Positions 1 through 19,377 of a stretch of DNA of 19,427 bases are shown here, piece by piece (position 1 is the first letter of the stretch; every line of letters begins with the position of its first letter). Origin of the DNA: a virus; UHGV virus genome UHGV-0123532. One strand, written 5' to 3'. Both the position numbers and the translations under genes were made by a program. The notes under the pieces are model-generated. The model did no database searches, was not told the origin of the DNA, and saw only the letters and a program-made list of their open reading frames with translations.

Positions 1-31
1 CTATGATTGGTTAGTAATAGAGTGTATCGGT

Positions 32-313
32 ATGCGATGTGGTTTATTAATGGCAATCTGCCTTTGTTTAGTATCTTTTAGCGGATATGCAGCAACAGGA
101 AAGTCTGATGCTCAGATCAAAAAAGAAATAATTAAAGAATCCATTGAATCTTATCCAGGCAATTGTGCGTGTCCTTATAATCATGCAAGGAATGGTAGTA
201 GATGTGGTGGACGCAGTGCATATAGCCGTAATGGAGGGTATGACGTGGTATGTTATGAGGGTGATGTTACCGATGAAATGATCCGGCAATGGAAGCAGGA
301 GAATGCTGAGTAA
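32..313 (+). CDS. hypothetical small secreted Cys-rich protein (93 aa; alternative start at 50)
   Basis: ORF from track; hydrophobic N-terminal segment (LLMAICLCLVSFSGYAA) followed by a polar region with 5 Cys; AT-rich compared with the prophage backbone; no family recognised by eye. Confidence 0.4.
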   Translation: MRCGLLMAICLCLVSFSGYAATGKSDAQIKKEIIKESIESYPGNCACPYNHARNGSRCGGRSAYSRNGGYDVVCYEGDVTDEMIRQWKQENAE

Positions 314-390
314 TCTCTTTTAACAGGTTTGTTGTGCGAGCATTATGTGCCGTTAACGGTACACTAGCTAGTGATAGTTCCAAAAAGAAA

Positions 391-423
391 ACCCGCAGTT
401 CTTACGCTGCGGGTTTGTTGTTC
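391..423. terminator. bidirectional intrinsic-terminator-like hairpin
   Basis: Stem acccgcag (391-398) pairs with ctgcgggt (407-414), 8-nt loop; A-run 381-390 upstream and T-rich 415-423 downstream, so it can terminate the plus-strand small ORF and the minus-strand hok transcript. Confidence 0.45.
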
Positions 424-501
424 ATGTCTGTGAGATAGGGTGCCACTTCAGCCAACCTTAGCAACCGATTGACGGGGGATTGCTCCCCCGTCGCGGTTTC
501 C

Positions 502-642
502 TTACTGCTTACACTGTAAGAACGCCGCAAACTCCGCTCCCCAGAAGCTCATCCGTATTTCACACAGCGAACCGTGTAGCATCCAGATGATGAGGATTAC
601 CGTCACGCAGAACGTGATGGCCGTAAGCGATTTTTGCGACAT
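502..642 (-). CDS. hok: Hok/Gef-family type I toxin, 46 aa (MSQKSLTAITFCVTVILIIWMLHGSLCEIRMSFWGAEFAAFLQCKQ)
   Basis: Hand-translated minus-strand ORF (below the 60-aa cutoff of the track); ATG at 640-642 preceded by AAGGAG; single TM helix plus conserved SLCE and AAFL-CK motifs, collinear with HokA-type toxins as remembered. Confidence 0.7.
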   Translation of the reverse strand: MSQKSLTAITFCVTVILIIWMLHGSLCEIRMSFWGAEFAAFLQCKQ

Positions 643-671
643 AGCGCTTGCTCCTTTGTTGGAGAGGCGCT
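643..671 (-). promoter_or_regulatory. stem-loop in the hok leader that pairs the Shine-Dalgarno with an upstream anti-SD
   Basis: Minus-strand RNA AGCGC-CUCUCC-AACAAA-GGAG-CAAGCGCU-AUG: outer arms agcgc/gcgcu and inner CUCC/GGAG are complementary; this matches the known translational control logic of hok mRNAs. Confidence 0.4.
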
Positions 672-833
672 AACCTATCACTTGCTTAAGGTAGATATGT
701 TAGGGCCTCGGTTAAACAGAAATGTTTTCCGGGGCCTTTCCACATCTGGCCTTCGGGTATTCCCTCCGACCATCAGCCGAAAGGCACCCGCGCGTAATCT
801 ATCGCTTTTTTGTTACTCCGGCAATTCTGCCTG

Positions 834-1094
834 TTAATTCTGAGGTAAAGGCAAACTCATCTGATTGTTTCCCCTGTGTGAAGCTGGCAGCTCATGCCAC
901 GGGATACCTTCTGAAGAGTGAACGCCGGAGGTGTGTTTTGATGTGAATTTATGGAAAGCTTCCAGTGTTGAGAAGCATACGCCGCATTCCAGGTTGTTAC
1001 ACTGGTAATACTTTTGCCGCACGGTGTTTGAATCATTTTCCGGACGACTGGTGCGGATACGGGCAGATGCGCCACAAAGCGGACAACGGAACAT
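834..1094 (-). CDS. ogr: Ogr/Delta-family zinc-finger late transcription activator
   Basis: MFRCPLCG...YYQCNNLECGVCF has the CxxC...CxxxxC pattern and resembles P2 Ogr (MFHCPLCQH...YHQCQNVNCSATF); RBS AAGGGAGG 6 nt upstream; lies directly downstream of D as in P2. Confidence 0.8.
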   Translation of the reverse strand: MFRCPLCGASARIRTSRPENDSNTVRQKYYQCNNLECGVCFSTLEAFHKFTSKHTSGVHSSEGIPWHELPASHRGNNQMSLPLPQN

Positions 1095-1136: not shown

Positions 1137-2246
1137 TCACTCTGTTTCTGCTATCCATTCCGGGATTTTTGCCTCAAGCTCAAGCTGCGTGGTAAAGCCG
1201 CTGTTATCGATGGTGTGCTCGGCTTTTGCAATAATCCAGTCCTGATTATCAATCTCGCTTTTAAATCCTGTTACCGTGCCATGCATTTCGGGGTAGAGTT
1301 CTGCACGACCACATGCCAGCGTGATGGAGAATGATGCGGCTCCGCGTTGTAGCTGCTGCCACTTTGCCGCCGCTGCGCGTCTTGCTGCCTGCTCGTTCTG
1401 ATAAGTCTTGCGTAACACAAACACATTGCCTTCCGCGCCTTCCATATAATCACCTTCGCGGCTGCTGCTTTTCTCCTTTTTGGGTTTTGGCGGTTTGCGG
1501 TGTTTCACGCTGACTTTTTTCTTTTTCCCGTAATTAAGATCAAGCCAGTAAGCGCGTACCCCCGTATACGCTTCGCGGTCAGCAATGCGGAACTGATGGC
1601 GATCGCCACTGCTGCGCGTGATGGCGAACGATGGCAACGGCTGGCCCTGTGCGTTCACGCCACCGCCTGGCATAATGAATAACAGATTACCGCTTTTTAC
1701 CGTGGTGATTGCGCCCAGCATTTCCGCCATGCGCGTAAGGAAGGACATGTCGCTTTCTTCGGTCTGGTCGGCGTGGTCGATTTCGATATCCATCAGCATT
1801 TCGCTGATTTGCGGTTTCAGACCATACCGATGAGCGATGGCGGATACCACACGCTCAACGGTCACATCATGCCAGGACACCTCACGTTTAACGTTAAATT
1901 CATCCCGAAAATCTGCGCTTCTGGCTGAAACAGTCAGCCTGTCCGGCGGTCCTTCGTGAGCGATTTCATCAACAATGTAAGTGCCTTTTTCTGTCAGCGG
2001 TTCTCCTTTCCAGCCAATGAGAACCGTCAGGCGCGCGCCCCGTGGCGGTAGCTGCAACTGACCATCCGCATCATCCAGCGTGATGGTGAGCTGGTCCGCG
2101 TCAAATCCCCGGTTGTCGGTCAGTGACAGGCTCATCAGGCGCTCTGCCACGCCTGACAGCGTTTTACCCTCCGCGAGAATATCAAAATCCGGCATTTTCA
2201 CGGGGTCTGTGCCCTGACTGAGCAATTGCATGGTGGTATCGGTCAT
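1137..2246 (-). CDS. D: P2 gpD-like tail protein (late gene D), about 370 aa
   Basis: Long ORF from track; start chosen at internal ATG 2244-2246 (MTDTTMQLL...) with GGAGGG RBS; identity by resemblance to remembered P2 gpD and by synteny with ogr. Confidence 0.8.
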   Translation of the reverse strand: MTDTTMQLLSQGTDPVKMPDFDILAEGKTLSGVAERLMSLSLTDNRGFDADQLTITLDDADGQLQLPPRGARLTVLIGWKGEPLTEKGTYIVDEIAHEGPPDRLTVSARSADFRDEFNVKREVSWHDVTVERVVSAIAHRYGLKPQISEMLMDIEIDHADQTEESDMSFLTRMAEMLGAITTVKSGNLLFIMPGGGVNAQGQPLPSFAITRSSGDRHQFRIADREAYTGVRAYWLDLNYGKKKKVSVKHRKPPKPKKEKSSSREGDYMEGAEGNVFVLRKTYQNEQAARRAAAAKWQQLQRGAASFSITLACGRAELYPEMHGTVTGFKSEIDNQDWIIAKAEHTIDNSGFTTQLELEAKIPEWIAETE

Positions 2247-2403
2247 CTGTTCCCTCCCTGTGCGGCATGGTCGCATGTGCGTGCGGAGGGGGTTACTGCT
2301 TTTTGTTGTCGCCGGATCGGGAGAACGGCACAGGGGTGAGATTACGCGCGTGGTGGGTGATGATTGTTGCCGAATCATTTAACGGATACAAGGGGCTAAA
2401 GCT

Positions 2404-3291
2404 ATGAGTGAAACTCGTTTTCATGGTGCCCGTGTTACGGAAAATACCGACCTGGTAACAGCGATTAACGATGTTGATTCCAGCGTTATCGGTATCGTGG
2501 CAACGGCGGATGATGCGGACGCGAAGCTGTTCCCGCTGAACAAGCCCACACTGCTGACCCGCGTCAATGACGTGCTGGGAAAATGCAGGACAACGGGGAC
2601 GCTTTATCGTGCGCTTAAGGCCATCGCAGACCAGGTGAGCACAAAGGTGATCGTCGTTCGCGTGGCTGAACACAAAGAAGAAGACGGAAAGACGCAGGAT
2701 CAACTGGTTATCGGTGGTTCTGAATCTGACGGCAGCTATACGGGGATGTATGCGCTGCTTGTTGCAGAGCAGGATGAAAGCATCGGATACCGTCCGCGTA
2801 TTCTGGCCGCGCCGGAGCTGGACACGGAGGCGGTGACAAAATCCCTGTGCGTGATTGCGGGTAAACTGCGCGCGTTTGTGTATGCCTCATGTCACGGCTG
2901 TAACACGATGGCTGAGGTGATTACCTACCGCCAGAAATTCAACGAACGTGAGGTGATGCTCTTATGGCCGGACTTCATCGCCTACAACCCGAAAAGTGGC
3001 AAAAACGAAACGTTCCCCGCGCCTGCCTATGCGTGCGGCCTTCGTGCGTACATTGACCATGAGCAGGGATGGCACAAATCACTGTCCAACGTTCCGGTTA
3101 AAAATGTGCTGGGGATGTCCAGGCATGTGTTCTGGTCGTTGCAGGCCGAAGACAGCGATGCCAACAGCCTCAACAACAAAGAAATCACGACCATTATTCG
3201 TCGCAACGGGTTCCGCTTCTGGGGCAACCGCACACCGGAAACGAACGCCTACATCTTTGAGGTGTATGCCGGAACATCGGCCAGCGTCTGA
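2404..3291 (+). pseudogene. FI: tail sheath protein FI, C-terminally truncated fragment (295 aa of about 396)
   Basis: Clear collinear similarity to P2 FI (TFPLNKP, LRAF-Y, WPDF-A, EQGWHK-LSNV, LIRR-GFRFWGNRT) ending near P2 residue 300; on the opposite strand to D/L/M/N and converging with the L-like ORF. Confidence 0.75.
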
Positions 3292-3608
3292 TGGCCAGCC
3301 GCCTGCTGTTCCTGCTGCCACGCTTCCAGTTCGCGGGTAACGTGAGCCACGGCCCCAGTGGCGGTATGCAGCAGGCGGGAGGTGGTCACGCGGCCCGGCA
3401 GTCGTACCGCCAGACGCAGCTCGCGCAGCACAATATCCGGCCAGAATGCACCTGCTGAAATGCGAGTGTCGCCATCATCGGTATCGGTGATGTCGTCCTC
3501 TGCGGGTCCTGGTTCAGTTCTGGCAACCATACTCATGGAGTTCACTCCTGAAAAAAAATCGGGCGGTGGGTGCGCGGTGTAAACGGTCACGGAGTCAAAC
3601 CGGAACAC
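3249..3608 (-). pseudogene. putative truncated head completion protein (gpL-like), GTG start
   Basis: Assigned only by position (starts 31 bp after the M stop, as L follows M in P2); its last ~14 codons (3249-3291) are antisense to the FI fragment, so the native reading frame is probably cut at the junction; P2 L is about 169 aa. Confidence 0.3.
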
Positions 3609-5561: not shown

Positions 5562-5938
5562 TCAGAAGTCAGCCAGCTGGTCGGAGGCTGCGCCCGTTGC
5601 GGTGAAGCGGTTCTGCGGATCGCCGTCCTGTGTGCGCAGTTTTTCCTTCAATGCTGTCAGCTCTGTGGTCAGTGACGTGATTTTCTGGCGGTCCTGCTGA
5701 TGGCGGGTTCCGTAATATCTTCCGTACTCAGCGCGGTGACATCGCCCATTGCGGAAAATTCGCTTGACGGGCATGGCGAGAGATAGTGCTCAACGTTCAC
5801 GCGGGCAGCGTAAACATCCGGGTTGAAGTTCTCGGCGGCTTCACGCAGATGTACCTGGCTGATTTCGCGGCCATCAACAGTTGATCCGGAGACAGCCACG
5901 CGAAACTTTTTGCGGGATGTCTTTTTTTCATTAGCCAT
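5562..5938 (-). pseudogene. O: capsid scaffold gpO-like, internally deleted and frameshifted
   Basis: N-terminal piece (MANEKKTSRKKFRVAVSGSTVDGREISQVHLREAAENFNPDVYAARVNVEHY..GDV) in one frame and C-terminal piece (TELTALKEKL...ATGAASDQLADF) in another; total locus about 377 bp against about 855 bp for P2 O. Confidence 0.6.
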
Positions 5939-6092
5939 AGTTTTTGCCCCTCTGACTGGTTCTTCAGTCATGATGGCAAAGCGTAACAGGCTGATAAAAA
6001 GGGCTTTTGTTGTAAGAAAACGGCCAGAACAGGGGGTTAAGGAGAACGGTTTCGCGCGCGGGTAATCTTCCTGTAATTACTCAGGGGGAGCA
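5939..6092. promoter_or_regulatory. divergent late-promoter region between O and P
   Basis: By synteny with P2 (divergent P and O operon promoters); no convincing TGT-N12-ACA Ogr dyad found by eye, so assigned by position only. Confidence 0.35.
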
Positions 6093-15597: not shown

Positions 15598-15828
15598 TTA
15601 ATGGAGTTTGTTTTGCTGCTGGATGAGCTGTTGAAGCTCGTGCAGATCATCCGCCAGATAGCTGAAAACAGAGGCGGAATAAATGTTTGATAGTGCGTGG
15701 CTGCGCTCATGCAGCATATTGATGTGCATGATTTGCGCGACGCGTGATGCGCGGGAAAGTCTGCGGTTGATTTCAGTCTGGATGTGACGACGCTCCGCGA
15801 TAGCGCGGTGTGGTTTGCGGTTTGCCAT
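15598..15828 (-). CDS. hypothetical early-operon protein (76 aa)
   Basis: ORF with AAGGGG RBS embedded in the 3' arm of an upstream stem. Confidence 0.5.
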   Translation of the reverse strand: MANRKPHRAIAERRHIQTEINRRLSRASRVAQIMHINMLHERSHALSNIYSASVFSYLADDLHELQQLIQQQNKLH

Positions 15829-15838
15829 GGTGTGGCCC

Positions 15839-16059
15839 CTTGTGTAGTAAGTTGTGAAAACTCACCATCCAGAGCTGCGAAACTGTGGGTGGCGAGACGT
15901 ACGAGGTTCGCAGTACCGGCTACACAAGAACCCGGCCCGACCGAAGTCGGCCCCGTACGCCCCGCCATAATTCTGACGCGAAAAAAACGTGGCAATACAG
16001 TACGCACAAAAAAACCGCTGGCGCGGTTGTGCGCTTGTGTAGTCAGCAGGCTGCGAAAC
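15839..16059. repeat. three copies of a bipartite motif CTTGTGTAG ... CTGCGAA(A)C in alternating orientation
   Basis: Forward copies at 15839-15847/15875-15883 and 16034-16042/16051-16059; reverse-complement copy at 15906-15913/15920-15928; all seen directly. Confidence 0.6.
16003..16028 (-). terminator. intrinsic-terminator-like hairpin plus U-tract on the minus strand inside the early operon
   Basis: Minus-strand RNA AACCGC-GCCA-GCGGUU followed by a U-run (plus-strand A-run 16008-16014). Confidence 0.4.
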
Positions 16060-16150
16060 CCGACACCCGTTTTGTGAGGTGCAGCGGAAATGTAACCTGA
16101 CTGATTGCGGCATGGCAAGCGGTTTTTTTGTGTGTGCATGTTCTGGTTTC

Positions 16151-16450
16151 TTACTGGTTCAGAAAAAAATCAAAAACCTTGTCAATGCGTTGCAGCAGCT
16201 CTTGCTGTATTGCTTCCGGTGTTTCCGGTTCGCCTGGCGCCTTCAACGTCGCGCAGAAATCAGCGATTTCATGATGGAGCGTCAGGCGAATGGCAGGAGC
16301 CGTGGTTCTGGCGTGCTCCAGCTCATCCAGCAGTGCCAGCACGGCAGACGGCGAGAGCATTGCGCGAAATGCCAGTAATTTTTGAGGCGTTGCCATTCGT
16401 TGCAGGGCAAATGCCAGTTCGCGTAGCTTCTGGTGGTTGATGGTGCTCAT
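16151..16450 (-). CDS. hypothetical early-operon protein (99 aa)
   Basis: ORF from track; start overlaps the upstream gene stop by 4 nt. Confidence 0.5.
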   Translation of the reverse strand: MSTINHQKLRELAFALQRMATPQKLLAFRAMLSPSAVLALLDELEHARTTAPAIRLTLHHEIADFCATLKAPGEPETPEAIQQELLQRIDKVFDFFLNQ

Positions 16451-16713
16451 GTTCTGGCTTCCTTCAGTAGCTGGTTAAACATGTGAGTAAGTGGATTGCT
16501 ACACCCGAACGGCATCGGGTTTACGTGGTAAGAAGCCTGGCCTCCAGTTTTGCGAGCGCGACCACCTGTGCTGCGGTTTGTTCTGATGACTAAGCCGCTG
16601 CGCCAAAGTCGGCGTAACTCAGCATTAATAGCTGTGGTTGGGGTGTTCAGTGCTGCGGCGATTTCTCCGCCGCTACAACCCGGATGTGTAGTGATGTAGT
16701 CCAGAATGGTCAT
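16447..16713 (-). CDS. putative winged-helix DNA-binding protein (88 aa)
   Basis: ILDYI...GCSGGEIAAAL...LRRLWRSGLV resembles winged-HTH recognition regions; 4-nt overlaps with both neighbours. Confidence 0.45.
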   Translation of the reverse strand: MTILDYITTHPGCSGGEIAAALNTPTTAINAELRRLWRSGLVIRTNRSTGGRARKTGGQASYHVNPMPFGCSNPLTHMFNQLLKEART

Positions 16714-16936: not shown

Positions 16937-17353
16937 CTATGCGTGAAATACGGCACGTTGCGCGTCATCAATGAATACAGCTTGAGATCGTTCTATCAGG
17001 CGGAGATTTGTCAGAAGCTCTGACTCTTTTGTGTGGTAAGGCGTTATCAGGTAGTTGCCGTGCAGTTCGGCAATAATGGTGTATTGCGTCATTATTGCCG
17101 AACCAAGAATGTAAATGCGGCGTCCAATGCTGGACGGATTCATGGCTGCAACTGTTGACTGTGTTTTAAGAGTGTCGATTTCTTTGCCCTGTTCCTCAAT
17201 AATTTTGGCTGCTTCAGAGGTGGCTATTGCGATGGTCAGTGCGTAAAGCGCTGCCATATGTTGATTATCTTTCTGGGCTGCCCTGGACAGCTTGTCTTGC
17301 TCTGCTGACACTATTTTTAATGTATTGATAATATTTTTTTCTTTTGCGTTCAT
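16937..17353 (-). CDS. hypothetical early-operon protein (138 aa), possibly a gpB analogue
   Basis: ORF with GGAG RBS; assignment to B is positional only. Confidence 0.45.
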   Translation of the reverse strand: MNAKEKNIINTLKIVSAEQDKLSRAAQKDNQHMAALYALTIAIATSEAAKIIEEQGKEIDTLKTQSTVAAMNPSSIGRRIYILGSAIMTQYTIIAELHGNYLITPYHTKESELLTNLRLIERSQAVFIDDAQRAVFHA

Positions 17354-17445
17354 TTTATATCTCCGTTATTTACGTGTGCGAATACCTCCGCGAATGCGGA
17401 TAGTTTTCAGGTTTTCGGGTTTAATCTGGTGTTTTGTTTAAGCTA

Positions 17446-17559
17446 TTATTTGTCAGTGAAAAAGCGTTCAATCTTTTTTACTGAATGAATAATTCGCATA
17501 ATCCCAATGGCGCAGGCCACCGAAATAATCAGAACAAGCCATGAGATAAATATACTCAT
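17446..17559 (-). CDS. small single-TM peptide, 37 aa (MSIFISWLVLIISVACAIGIMRIIHSVKKIERFFTDK)
   Basis: Hand-translated; its ATG overlaps the stop of the upstream 80-aa gene as ATGA; hydrophobic core followed by a basic tail. Confidence 0.4.
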   Translation of the reverse strand: MSIFISWLVLIISVACAIGIMRIIHSVKKIERFFTDK

Positions 17560-17798
17560 GCGATATTCCCCAGCTTATACGGTTCAATGTGTTCCCCGCA
17601 TTCTGCGGCACAGATCAGCTCGGAAAGTTCGTTCAGTGCATCCAGATCATCAGCGTAAAAAGCAACGTCATACAAACTCCGGATTGCCCTGGTCAATGAG
17701 TCACGGGCTGCATGTTCAGCATGAGCGCCTGATGCACTTAAGCGAAAATAAAATCGTTCAAGTGCTTTGTTAATGAGAGTTTTATATTCTTTGCCCAT
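17556..17798 (-). CDS. hypothetical early-operon protein (80 aa)
   Basis: ORF from track; AAAGGG upstream. Confidence 0.5.
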   Translation of the reverse strand: MGKEYKTLINKALERFYFRLSASGAHAEHAARDSLTRAIRSLYDVAFYADDLDALNELSELICAAECGEHIEPYKLGNIA

Positions 17799-18690: not shown

Positions 18691-18897
18691 TCAGGAAGAT
18701 TTGTTTTGTTCTTTCTGGGTTAGCTCTAGGCCGCGAAGGAAGATCATGCGCGCCATGTTAGAGGATGAGCGTTGTTCTTTAGCTGCCATTTCATCAATGA
18801 CGGCTCGCTCCTCGAGGGACAGCCGAAGTGCCAGTCTTGGACCTGTGGCGGTGTTACGCGGAATGCGTGATCTGGTATCGTGAAGAACTTGTTTCAT
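18691..18897 (-). CDS. ribbon-helix-helix-like small regulator, first gene of the early operon
   Basis: PRLALRLSLEERAVIDEMAAKE is an Arc/CopG-like RHH signature; no strong RBS. Confidence 0.45.
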   Translation of the reverse strand: MKQVLHDTRSRIPRNTATGPRLALRLSLEERAVIDEMAAKEQRSSSNMARMIFLRGLELTQKEQNKSS

Positions 18898-18934: not shown

Positions 18935-18963
18935 ATTTTGGTATCAAAAAAGATACCTGTCAA
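18935..18963 (-). promoter_or_regulatory. early (lytic) promoter with operator palindrome in the spacer
   Basis: Minus strand TTGACA (18958-18963) - 17 nt - CAAAAT (18935-18940); the spacer is the inverted repeat GGTATC-AAAAAA-GATACC (18940-18957). Confidence 0.5.
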
Positions 18964-18972
18964 GGTTTTTGT

Positions 18973-19377
18973 ATGAAAAATGATATTGGTCAGCGGTTGC
19001 GTGAGGAAAGGGAAAGATTGGGACTTAGTCAAGTTGCCATGAGCGACATTGGTGGAGTCAAAAAGCTAACTCAGCTTAGATATGAGAAAGGAGATAGCTT
19101 TCCTGATGCTGCGTATTTGGCAGCGCTGTCTCGTTTTGGCCTTGATGTTCAGTATGTTGTGTTGGGAATTCACTCACCTGAAACTTATAACGATGATGAG
19201 CAGGAGTTGATTACTCGCTTTCGAGCAGCTTCGTTAGATGTGAAAAACGCGGTGATTGGGGCTTTAAAAGGTGCGATCAGTGAAAAGGAAACTCAGCCAT
19301 CAGGACGTGAGTTAAATATTTCTGGTGGTAAAAACCGTATCGCTGGTCGTGACTATAACGAAACTAAGGGTAGGTGA
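18973..19377 (+). CDS. XRE-family HTH transcriptional repressor (immunity repressor, C-like)
   Basis: N-terminal HTH QRLREERERLGLSQVAMSD; transcribed divergently from the early operon. Confidence 0.7.
   Translation: MKNDIGQRLREERERLGLSQVAMSDIGGVKKLTQLRYEKGDSFPDAAYLAALSRFGLDVQYVVLGIHSPETYNDDEQELITRFRAASLDVKNAVIGALKGAISEKETQPSGRELNISGGKNRIAGRDYNETKGR

Follow-up and report, generated by a model that had tools for sequence, protein, structure and literature searches.

MgrB, AcrZ, MgtS, SgrT and CydX are inner-membrane regulators of enterobacteria with fewer than 50 residues, each with one transmembrane (TM) helix through which it binds a larger membrane protein. The 37-residue prophage product described here is likewise small and built on a single helix, and its one-sided conserved face with small residues invites comparison with that group by analogy; unlike its members, the peptide is phage-encoded, lies in a lytic operon and has no sequence similarity to them. 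Type I toxins (Hok/Gef, Ldr, TisB, Ibs) offer another point of comparison through their small size, hydrophobic helix and charged tail, but the peptide differs from them in having no family match, no antisense RNA and no independent locus, being coupled within an operon instead. In phage 186, the small non-essential genes fil and dhr occupy a comparable place in the early operon, between a cox/apl-type gene and gene A; the 186 record annotates Fil as a block to cell division and Dhr as an inhibitor of host replication. Unlike the peptide, neither Fil nor Dhr has an N-terminal TM helix. Comparison of the peptide with Fil and Dhr gave nothing by BLASTP and a probability of 0.6% by hhalign, and a local likeness to the C-terminus of Fil (IIRIVHFVIK against IMRIIHSVKK) was not significant.

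Locus and prophage context

The peptide gene lies on the minus strand at 17446..17559 of the window (the whole 19,427-nucleotide stretch of virus genome UHGV-0123532 that we analyzed). It starts at ATG and has 37 codons before the TAA stop, which these coordinates include; its translation is MSIFISWLVLIISVACAIGIMRIIHSVKKIERFFTDK. The original prediction had given this frame and its content without naming a strand, and both hold up. The ATG and the stop codon (TGA) of the 80-residue DUF4754 gene upstream (17556..17798, minus strand; PF15946, Pfam E=8.7e-54) have two bases in common, and the predicted overlap on the upstream stop is indeed present: tcat at 17556-17559 on the plus strand is ATGA on the coding strand. 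Within the final DUF4754 codons, a Shine-Dalgarno-like (SD) GGGGAA at 17566..17571 (minus strand) occupies positions -12..-7 from the peptide ATG.

On sequence grounds, the window is a P88-like E. coli prophage (Xuanwuvirus, Peduoviridae, P2-family). The region is 100% identical to the chromosomes of several E. coli strains, and the closest phages belong to Xuanwuvirus (P88, P884B11, 520873 and Citrobacter phage Shae_phiSM). Its gene order, int-C / cox-...-A, is that of P2 and 186. In RefSeq, the prophage order runs from integrase through HTH repressor, Cox-like gene, DUF4761, a 92-residue protein and DUF4754 to the peptide, followed by several small genes and then the replication endonuclease (gpA), and the synteny int-C-cox-...-DUF4761-...-DUF4754-peptide-variable-gpA is constant across loci. 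The early-operon location predicted for the peptide holds up, and in this P2-family prophage it falls after the Cox-like gene and before replication gene A. Genes in the operon are tightly packed, with further 4-nt overlaps at 16710-16713 and 16447-16450. In a consensus scan, a pattern match to a promoter, TTGACA-17-CAAAAT at 18935..18963 (minus strand), faces the early operon and adjoins a divergent C-type repressor gene (18973..19377, plus strand); we presume it to be the early promoter Pe. The first open reading frame (ORF) after this presumed promoter, of 68 residues (18691..18897, minus strand), is weakly similar to ribbon-helix-helix proteins (RHH_1/RHH_5, E=0.075) and is named 'Arc-like repressor' in phage 520873. 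The RefSeq annotation of AR_0013 places a 45-residue ORF on the opposite strand instead (18746..18883, plus strand), a call that may be on the wrong strand.

Elsewhere in the window, the prophage looks deleted or rearranged when compared with the related intact prophage of strain AR_0013. Here a tail-sheath fragment (2404..3291, plus strand) adjoins an oppositely oriented gpL head-completion fragment (3249..3608, minus strand), and gpD (1137..2378, minus strand) and then ogr come next; the lysis genes are missing, as are most of the tail genes, and the GPO scaffold gene is seemingly split (5669..5971 and 5562..5774). At the prophage end, next to the ogr-like gene (834..1094, minus strand), a 46-residue ORF at 505..642 (minus strand; MSQKSLTAITFCVTVILIIWMLHGSLCEIRMSFWGAEFAAFLQCKQ) matches Pfam Hok/Gef (PF01848) with 30.1 bits against a cut-off of 22, and Rfam reported no Sok-like RNA for it. 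Matches to C4 antisense RNA (83 bits; 15885..15972, minus strand) and isrK (62 bits; 16008..16082, minus strand), both above the Rfam gathering score, lie just upstream of a 76-residue 'Derepression protein' ORF (15598..15828, minus strand; PF25738). Together, this arrangement resembles a P1 immI-like RNA-controlled antirepressor module in a P2-family prophage.

The peptide had been described as unannotated, which is true of the ORF track used for the original prediction and untrue of public databases. RefSeq holds it as a 114-nt CDS for a 'hypothetical protein' (WP_000021655.1) that is 100% identical to the window peptide, the GenBank record of phage P88 calls it 'membrane protein' (AIZ95115.1), and UniRef calls it 'Prophage membrane protein' (A0A0C2F1Q7). 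These entries are identical or more than 90% identical, occupy the same place after DUF4754 in P88-like prophages and represent the same gene family as the window peptide under automatically assigned names; phage records OR565851 and NC_049344 omit the gene. It is present in 1384 of 5426 complete E. coli genomes (~25%), O157:H7 among them, and where sampled E. coli entries have a match covering the ORF, a 'hypothetical protein' CDS adjoining DUF4754 is annotated there. The exact peptide sequence occurs on at least 1000 contigs.

Beyond E. coli the family is narrow. When 1.84 billion cluster representatives were scanned in full with HMMER, nine matched, all from the peptide's own family, and an alignment-based search returned 153 relatives, nearly all of them Escherichia proteins; their cluster members include some from Salmonella and Shigella. 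Searching phage genomes by tblastn with the peptide found P88-like phages only. On one contig labelled Vagococcus sp. WN89Y (NZ_JBQPOM010000071.1), DUF4754 is 99% identical and the peptide gene is intact; enterobacterial contamination or mislabelling is the most likely source. The peptide has no family match in Pfam, PHROGs, NCBIfam, PADLOC or PDB sequences, and we found nothing in the literature on DUF4754 or on the peptide sequence or accession, and nothing mechanistic on Xuanwuvirus. Full-text searches and the supplements of a Ribo-seq small-gene paper on strain Sakai gave no expression, localization or phenotype for the peptide, although lysogens would in any case not be expected to express a gene of early lytic growth. 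Judged by these searches, the peptide gene belongs to its own narrow, uncharacterized family, which is already in databases.

Purifying selection on the reading frame

We gathered more than 100 related loci from IMG/VR, phage genomes and assemblies; a contig scan with DUF4754 as the single query yielded two loci, and the IMG/VR scans were more productive. The ATGA overlap and the frame are kept in all but one of these loci. The apparent case of frame loss, phage 503458, was set aside: several 1-nt indels there also break DUF4754, and they would reflect sequencing error or decay rather than a loss specific to the peptide. Shortened alleles of 30-34 residues occur, and in these the TM segment and juxtamembrane part are retained.

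Selection acts on the peptide frame itself. Across 38 unique 99-nt alleles, the ORF frame has pS=0.339 and pN=0.098, giving a pN/pS of 0.29 (sums over pairwise comparisons, not tree-corrected), as against 1.04 and 1.88 in the other two sense frames. The antisense frames give 1.05, 0.37 and 1.80, the frame at 0.37 being the one that shares third codon positions with the ORF. Variable sites are distributed over the three codon positions as 20:9:29, and substitutions within the TM segment are almost all from one hydrophobic residue to another (V/I/L/A/M/F). Among 30 unique 90-nt alleles, stops interrupt the other sense frames in 30/30 and 8/30 alleles and the antisense frames in 21/30 to 30/30. 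Two overlapping ORFs were rejected on these data, a 47-residue ORF at 17468..17611 (minus strand), with stops in 8 of 30 alleles and a pN/pS of at least 1, and an 88-residue antisense ORF at 17507..17773 (plus strand), whose frames carry stops in 21-30 of 30 alleles. The peptide is under purifying selection.

The start site is conserved along with the frame. Starting from either gene, we found the peptide gene directly after DUF4754 in every locus examined, and the two families share the same narrow taxonomic range. DUF4754 falls into three deep clades, 26-42% identical to the window copy. Each clade retains the ATGA overlap with the peptide gene, and each has a purine run (GGGGAA, GAGGTGG, GAGGAG or AGGAG) at -5..-12 even though the C-terminal residues of DUF4754 differ. 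A 4-nt overlap and an SD within the upstream coding sequence that persist across such diverged partners are the arrangement expected of the translational coupling that had been predicted. Conservation of the frame in related prophages, the check proposed for the original prediction, likewise came out in its favour, at more than 100 loci.

These data bear directly on whether the ORF could be a chance product of AT-rich spacer DNA that gene callers have propagated. It is indeed short, falls outside any assigned family and has 35% GC against ~47% in its surroundings, but a spurious ORF would hardly stay intact in more than 100 loci at a pN/pS of 0.29 with its SD and ATGA kept across clades. We regard the spurious reading as strongly disfavoured, to the point of being barely credible, and the peptide as very probably the product of a translated, functional gene.

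The junction between the two genes has also recombined. In one locus (L088), a 41-residue peptide allele follows a DUF4754 that is 42% identical to the window copy; in another (L089; GCA_900536625.1, UNQI01000008.1), the same 41-residue allele is joined to a window-type DUF4754 (84% identity), with the crossover within the last few bases of DUF4754. This pairing argues against a tightly co-evolved physical pair, and DUF4754 and the peptide form a conserved cassette that is not obviously co-evolving. At positions 1..795 of the L089 contig, upstream of the DUF4761-DUF4754-peptide block, a Mu-type transposase occupies the usual integrase/repressor/cox place; the cassette may occur beside, or be interrupted by, a Mu-like element.

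Predicted structure and length classes

The peptide was originally described as a single-TM protein with a hydrophobic helix and a basic C-terminal tail, and each part of that description survives closer analysis. One span-length hydrophobic segment covers residues 3-21, with a 19-residue Kyte-Doolittle mean of 2.68. Among the 220 ORFs of at least 30 residues in all six frames of the window, this value ranks second, and of the 146 ORFs with 30-60 residues just 2 reach 2.5. The tail, R22-K37, has five basic and two acidic residues, a net charge of +3 by direct count. From an alignment of 20 sequences, AlphaFold2 (AF2) predicted one continuous helix over residues 2-35 (mean pLDDT 86), straight and without a hinge. 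The span contains no charged residue, and its only polar residues are S6, S13 and C16. Since the residues ahead of the span are uncharged and the tail that follows is net +3, the positive-inside rule gives an N-out/C-in orientation, and we consider a membrane protein of this topology likely.

Conservation is concentrated on one side of the helix. Among 117 variants, M1, S6, W7 and L10 are invariant, and I11, A17, G19, I20, R22 and I24 are conserved in at least 90%. The conserved stripe runs S6-L10-S/A13-A17-I20/M21-I24-K28-E31, and the variable stripe takes in residues 5, 8/9, 15/16, 25-27, 29 and 32/33. Periodicity of conservation is strongest at 105 degrees, with a permutation p of ~0.02-0.05 that is marginal and comes from phylogenetically related sequences. 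A15 is the most variable TM position (2.14 bits), and C16 is replaced by M in 19/117 variants.

The family falls into length classes that differ after this conserved part. The 41-residue class ends at a conserved AAATAA, the 37-residue class acquires an earlier TAA through a point change, and the 45-residue class arises from a -1 slip in a T5 run, after which the frame reads on into the spacer. The conserved unit is residues 1-34, and the last three to four residues vary; with classes that are separated by a point-mutation stop and a T5 slip, residues after about position 34 would be dispensable.

Several alternative identities were considered for this architecture and rejected. A cleaved signal peptide or lipoprotein is unlikely from the sequence: the hydrophobic core has no basic residue ahead of it, position -3 is S/A and the lipobox is not conserved. 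The predicted layout, in which an N-out TM helix leads directly into an amphipathic helix in the cytoplasm, recalls TatA, and a 41-residue relative gave an NCBIfam TatA match (E=0.11); at 12 bits against a cut-off of 104, however, the match is far below threshold, and the AF2 helix has no hinge. We treat this and a second sub-threshold match of the family, to '5TM', as noise. A holin or antiholin role was rejected from gene order in the related intact prophage, whose holin, endolysin and Rz-like genes belong to the late region, a long way from the peptide gene.

Candidate functions

We propose that the peptide would be transcribed within the repressor-controlled early lytic operon, a timing suggested by its operon position, together with the Cox-like gene, DUF4761, the 92-residue protein, DUF4754, the variable module and replication endonuclease A. 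Translation would proceed by termination-reinitiation with DUF4754 at the ATGA, assisted by the peptide's own SD. The product would be a bitopic inner-membrane protein, one continuous helix with its N-terminus (Met-Ser) in the periplasm, W7 and R22 each at one membrane interface and R22-F34 forming a short amphipathic, net-basic juxtamembrane helix in the cytoplasm. During early lytic development, it would bind a membrane partner through its conserved face, which could be an inner-membrane protein of the host, the peptide itself and/or the acidic DUF4754 translated alongside it. A conserved stripe with small helix-packing residues, together with an uncharged span, makes partner binding the most likely activity and a pore less likely. 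We give roughly even chances to the peptide being a partner-binding modulator or anchor rather than a membrane-damaging toxin. An early bitopic partner-binding membrane protein is also our best explanation overall, a function read from architecture that we hold with a confidence balanced between belief and doubt.

The host-takeover or toxin-like role raised in the original prediction is an analogy. Such a peptide would resemble type I toxins or holins, being made early, oligomerizing in the membrane, dissipating the proton motive force and shutting down host metabolism. Its N-terminal TM helix, charged C-terminal tail and size are like those of Ldr, Fst and TisB, an operon repressed in lysogens would tolerate a toxic product, and frameshifted or truncated alleles of 45, 34 and 30 residues are fairly common. 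The truncated alleles nevertheless keep the TM segment and juxtamembrane part, and the span offers no charged or strongly polar residues to line a pore. The peptide also has no homology to a toxin, division inhibitor or defence family in Pfam, NCBIfam, PADLOC or the BLASTP and hhalign comparisons with 186 Fil and Dhr, whereas the true Hok/Gef ORF in the same window was detected easily. The locus has no separate promoter, long 5' UTR or antisense RNA family: promoter-like matches are at chance level (4 found against 4.2 expected), and Rfam found no RNA at the peptide locus. On balance, we think a membrane-damaging toxin unlikely. If the peptide instead served as a dedicated membrane anchor for DUF4754, the coupled complex would tether that acidic protein to the inner membrane, where it might, for example, organize early phage DNA transactions. 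The strict adjacency and 4-nt overlap in every locus found through either gene, and the shared taxonomic range of the families, fit such a role, as do the opposite net charges of DUF4754 (acidic) and the peptide tail (basic) by residue count and the extension of the conserved stripe into the cytoplasmic tail at K28 and E31. However, junction recombination pairs one peptide allele with very different DUF4754 proteins (L088 and L089), and the fold of DUF4754 yields no functional clue: it is predicted to be small and all-helical (AF2 pLDDT 92), and a Foldseek search against the PDB retrieved only generic helical bundles (best E 1.5). A dedicated anchor seems doubtful to us.

A further reading takes the act of translation, not its product, to be what matters, the ORF carrying ribosomes across the junction between DUF4754 and the spacer and so preventing Rho polarity or controlling a downstream hairpin and variable-module expression. 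Downstream of the peptide gene, the 92-nt spacer does contain a conserved 5-bp hairpin (AUCCGC-AUUC-GCGGAgg in the sense RNA; 17387..17400, minus strand), preceded by an A-rich tract with a conserved GAAAAC..GAAAAC (17401..17416, minus strand). The hairpin is present in the 37-residue, 45-residue and most 41-residue classes, even where the next gene differs; 98.9% of the cells in its alignment are paired, one pair changes from C:G to U:A and the loop varies freely. Hairpin and A-rich tract thus follow the ORF in almost all classes, and P2 and 186 carry terminators at a comparable point of the early operon. On the sense strand, the hairpin has no U-run after it and so is not a classical terminator like those of P2 and 186. 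We also rejected the hairpin as a plus-strand terminator-like element or antisense small RNA with a promoter-like sequence at 17305..17334, as promoter matches are at chance level, two G:U wobbles are valid on the sense strand only and folding z-scores are unremarkable. Against a role for translation as such, the amino-acid sequence is itself selected (pN/pS 0.29) and its conservation is one-sided on the helix, neither of which is expected of a pure spacer ORF. The hairpin also lies 22-46 nt downstream of the stop codon, a distance at which a terminating ribosome would not mask it. We consider this reading very improbable.

An early bitopic protein that binds a membrane partner thus remains our preferred reading of the peptide. 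A bolder view, to which we assign a low probability, is that DUF4754, the peptide and the downstream hairpin form a lineage-specific early module with no characterized relative, directed at a host inner-membrane machine (e.g. the divisome, FtsH/HflKC or a transporter) or at membrane anchoring of early phage DNA transactions. If that were true, about one in four E. coli genomes, O157:H7 among them, would carry a host-takeover or organizing mechanism of this kind.

As matters stand, the peptide gene is a well-supported, ordinary uncharacterized small phage gene that is already in databases. It is also a core, selected gene of a prophage family carried by ~25% of complete E. coli genomes, enterohaemorrhagic strains included, and it belongs to the under-studied small membrane proteins, several of which are potent regulators of large membrane complexes. 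Should it modulate a host membrane process during lytic development, it would provide a new handle on host takeover by P2-family phages, and it might also supply a small inhibitor, new in kind, of some essential function of the envelope.
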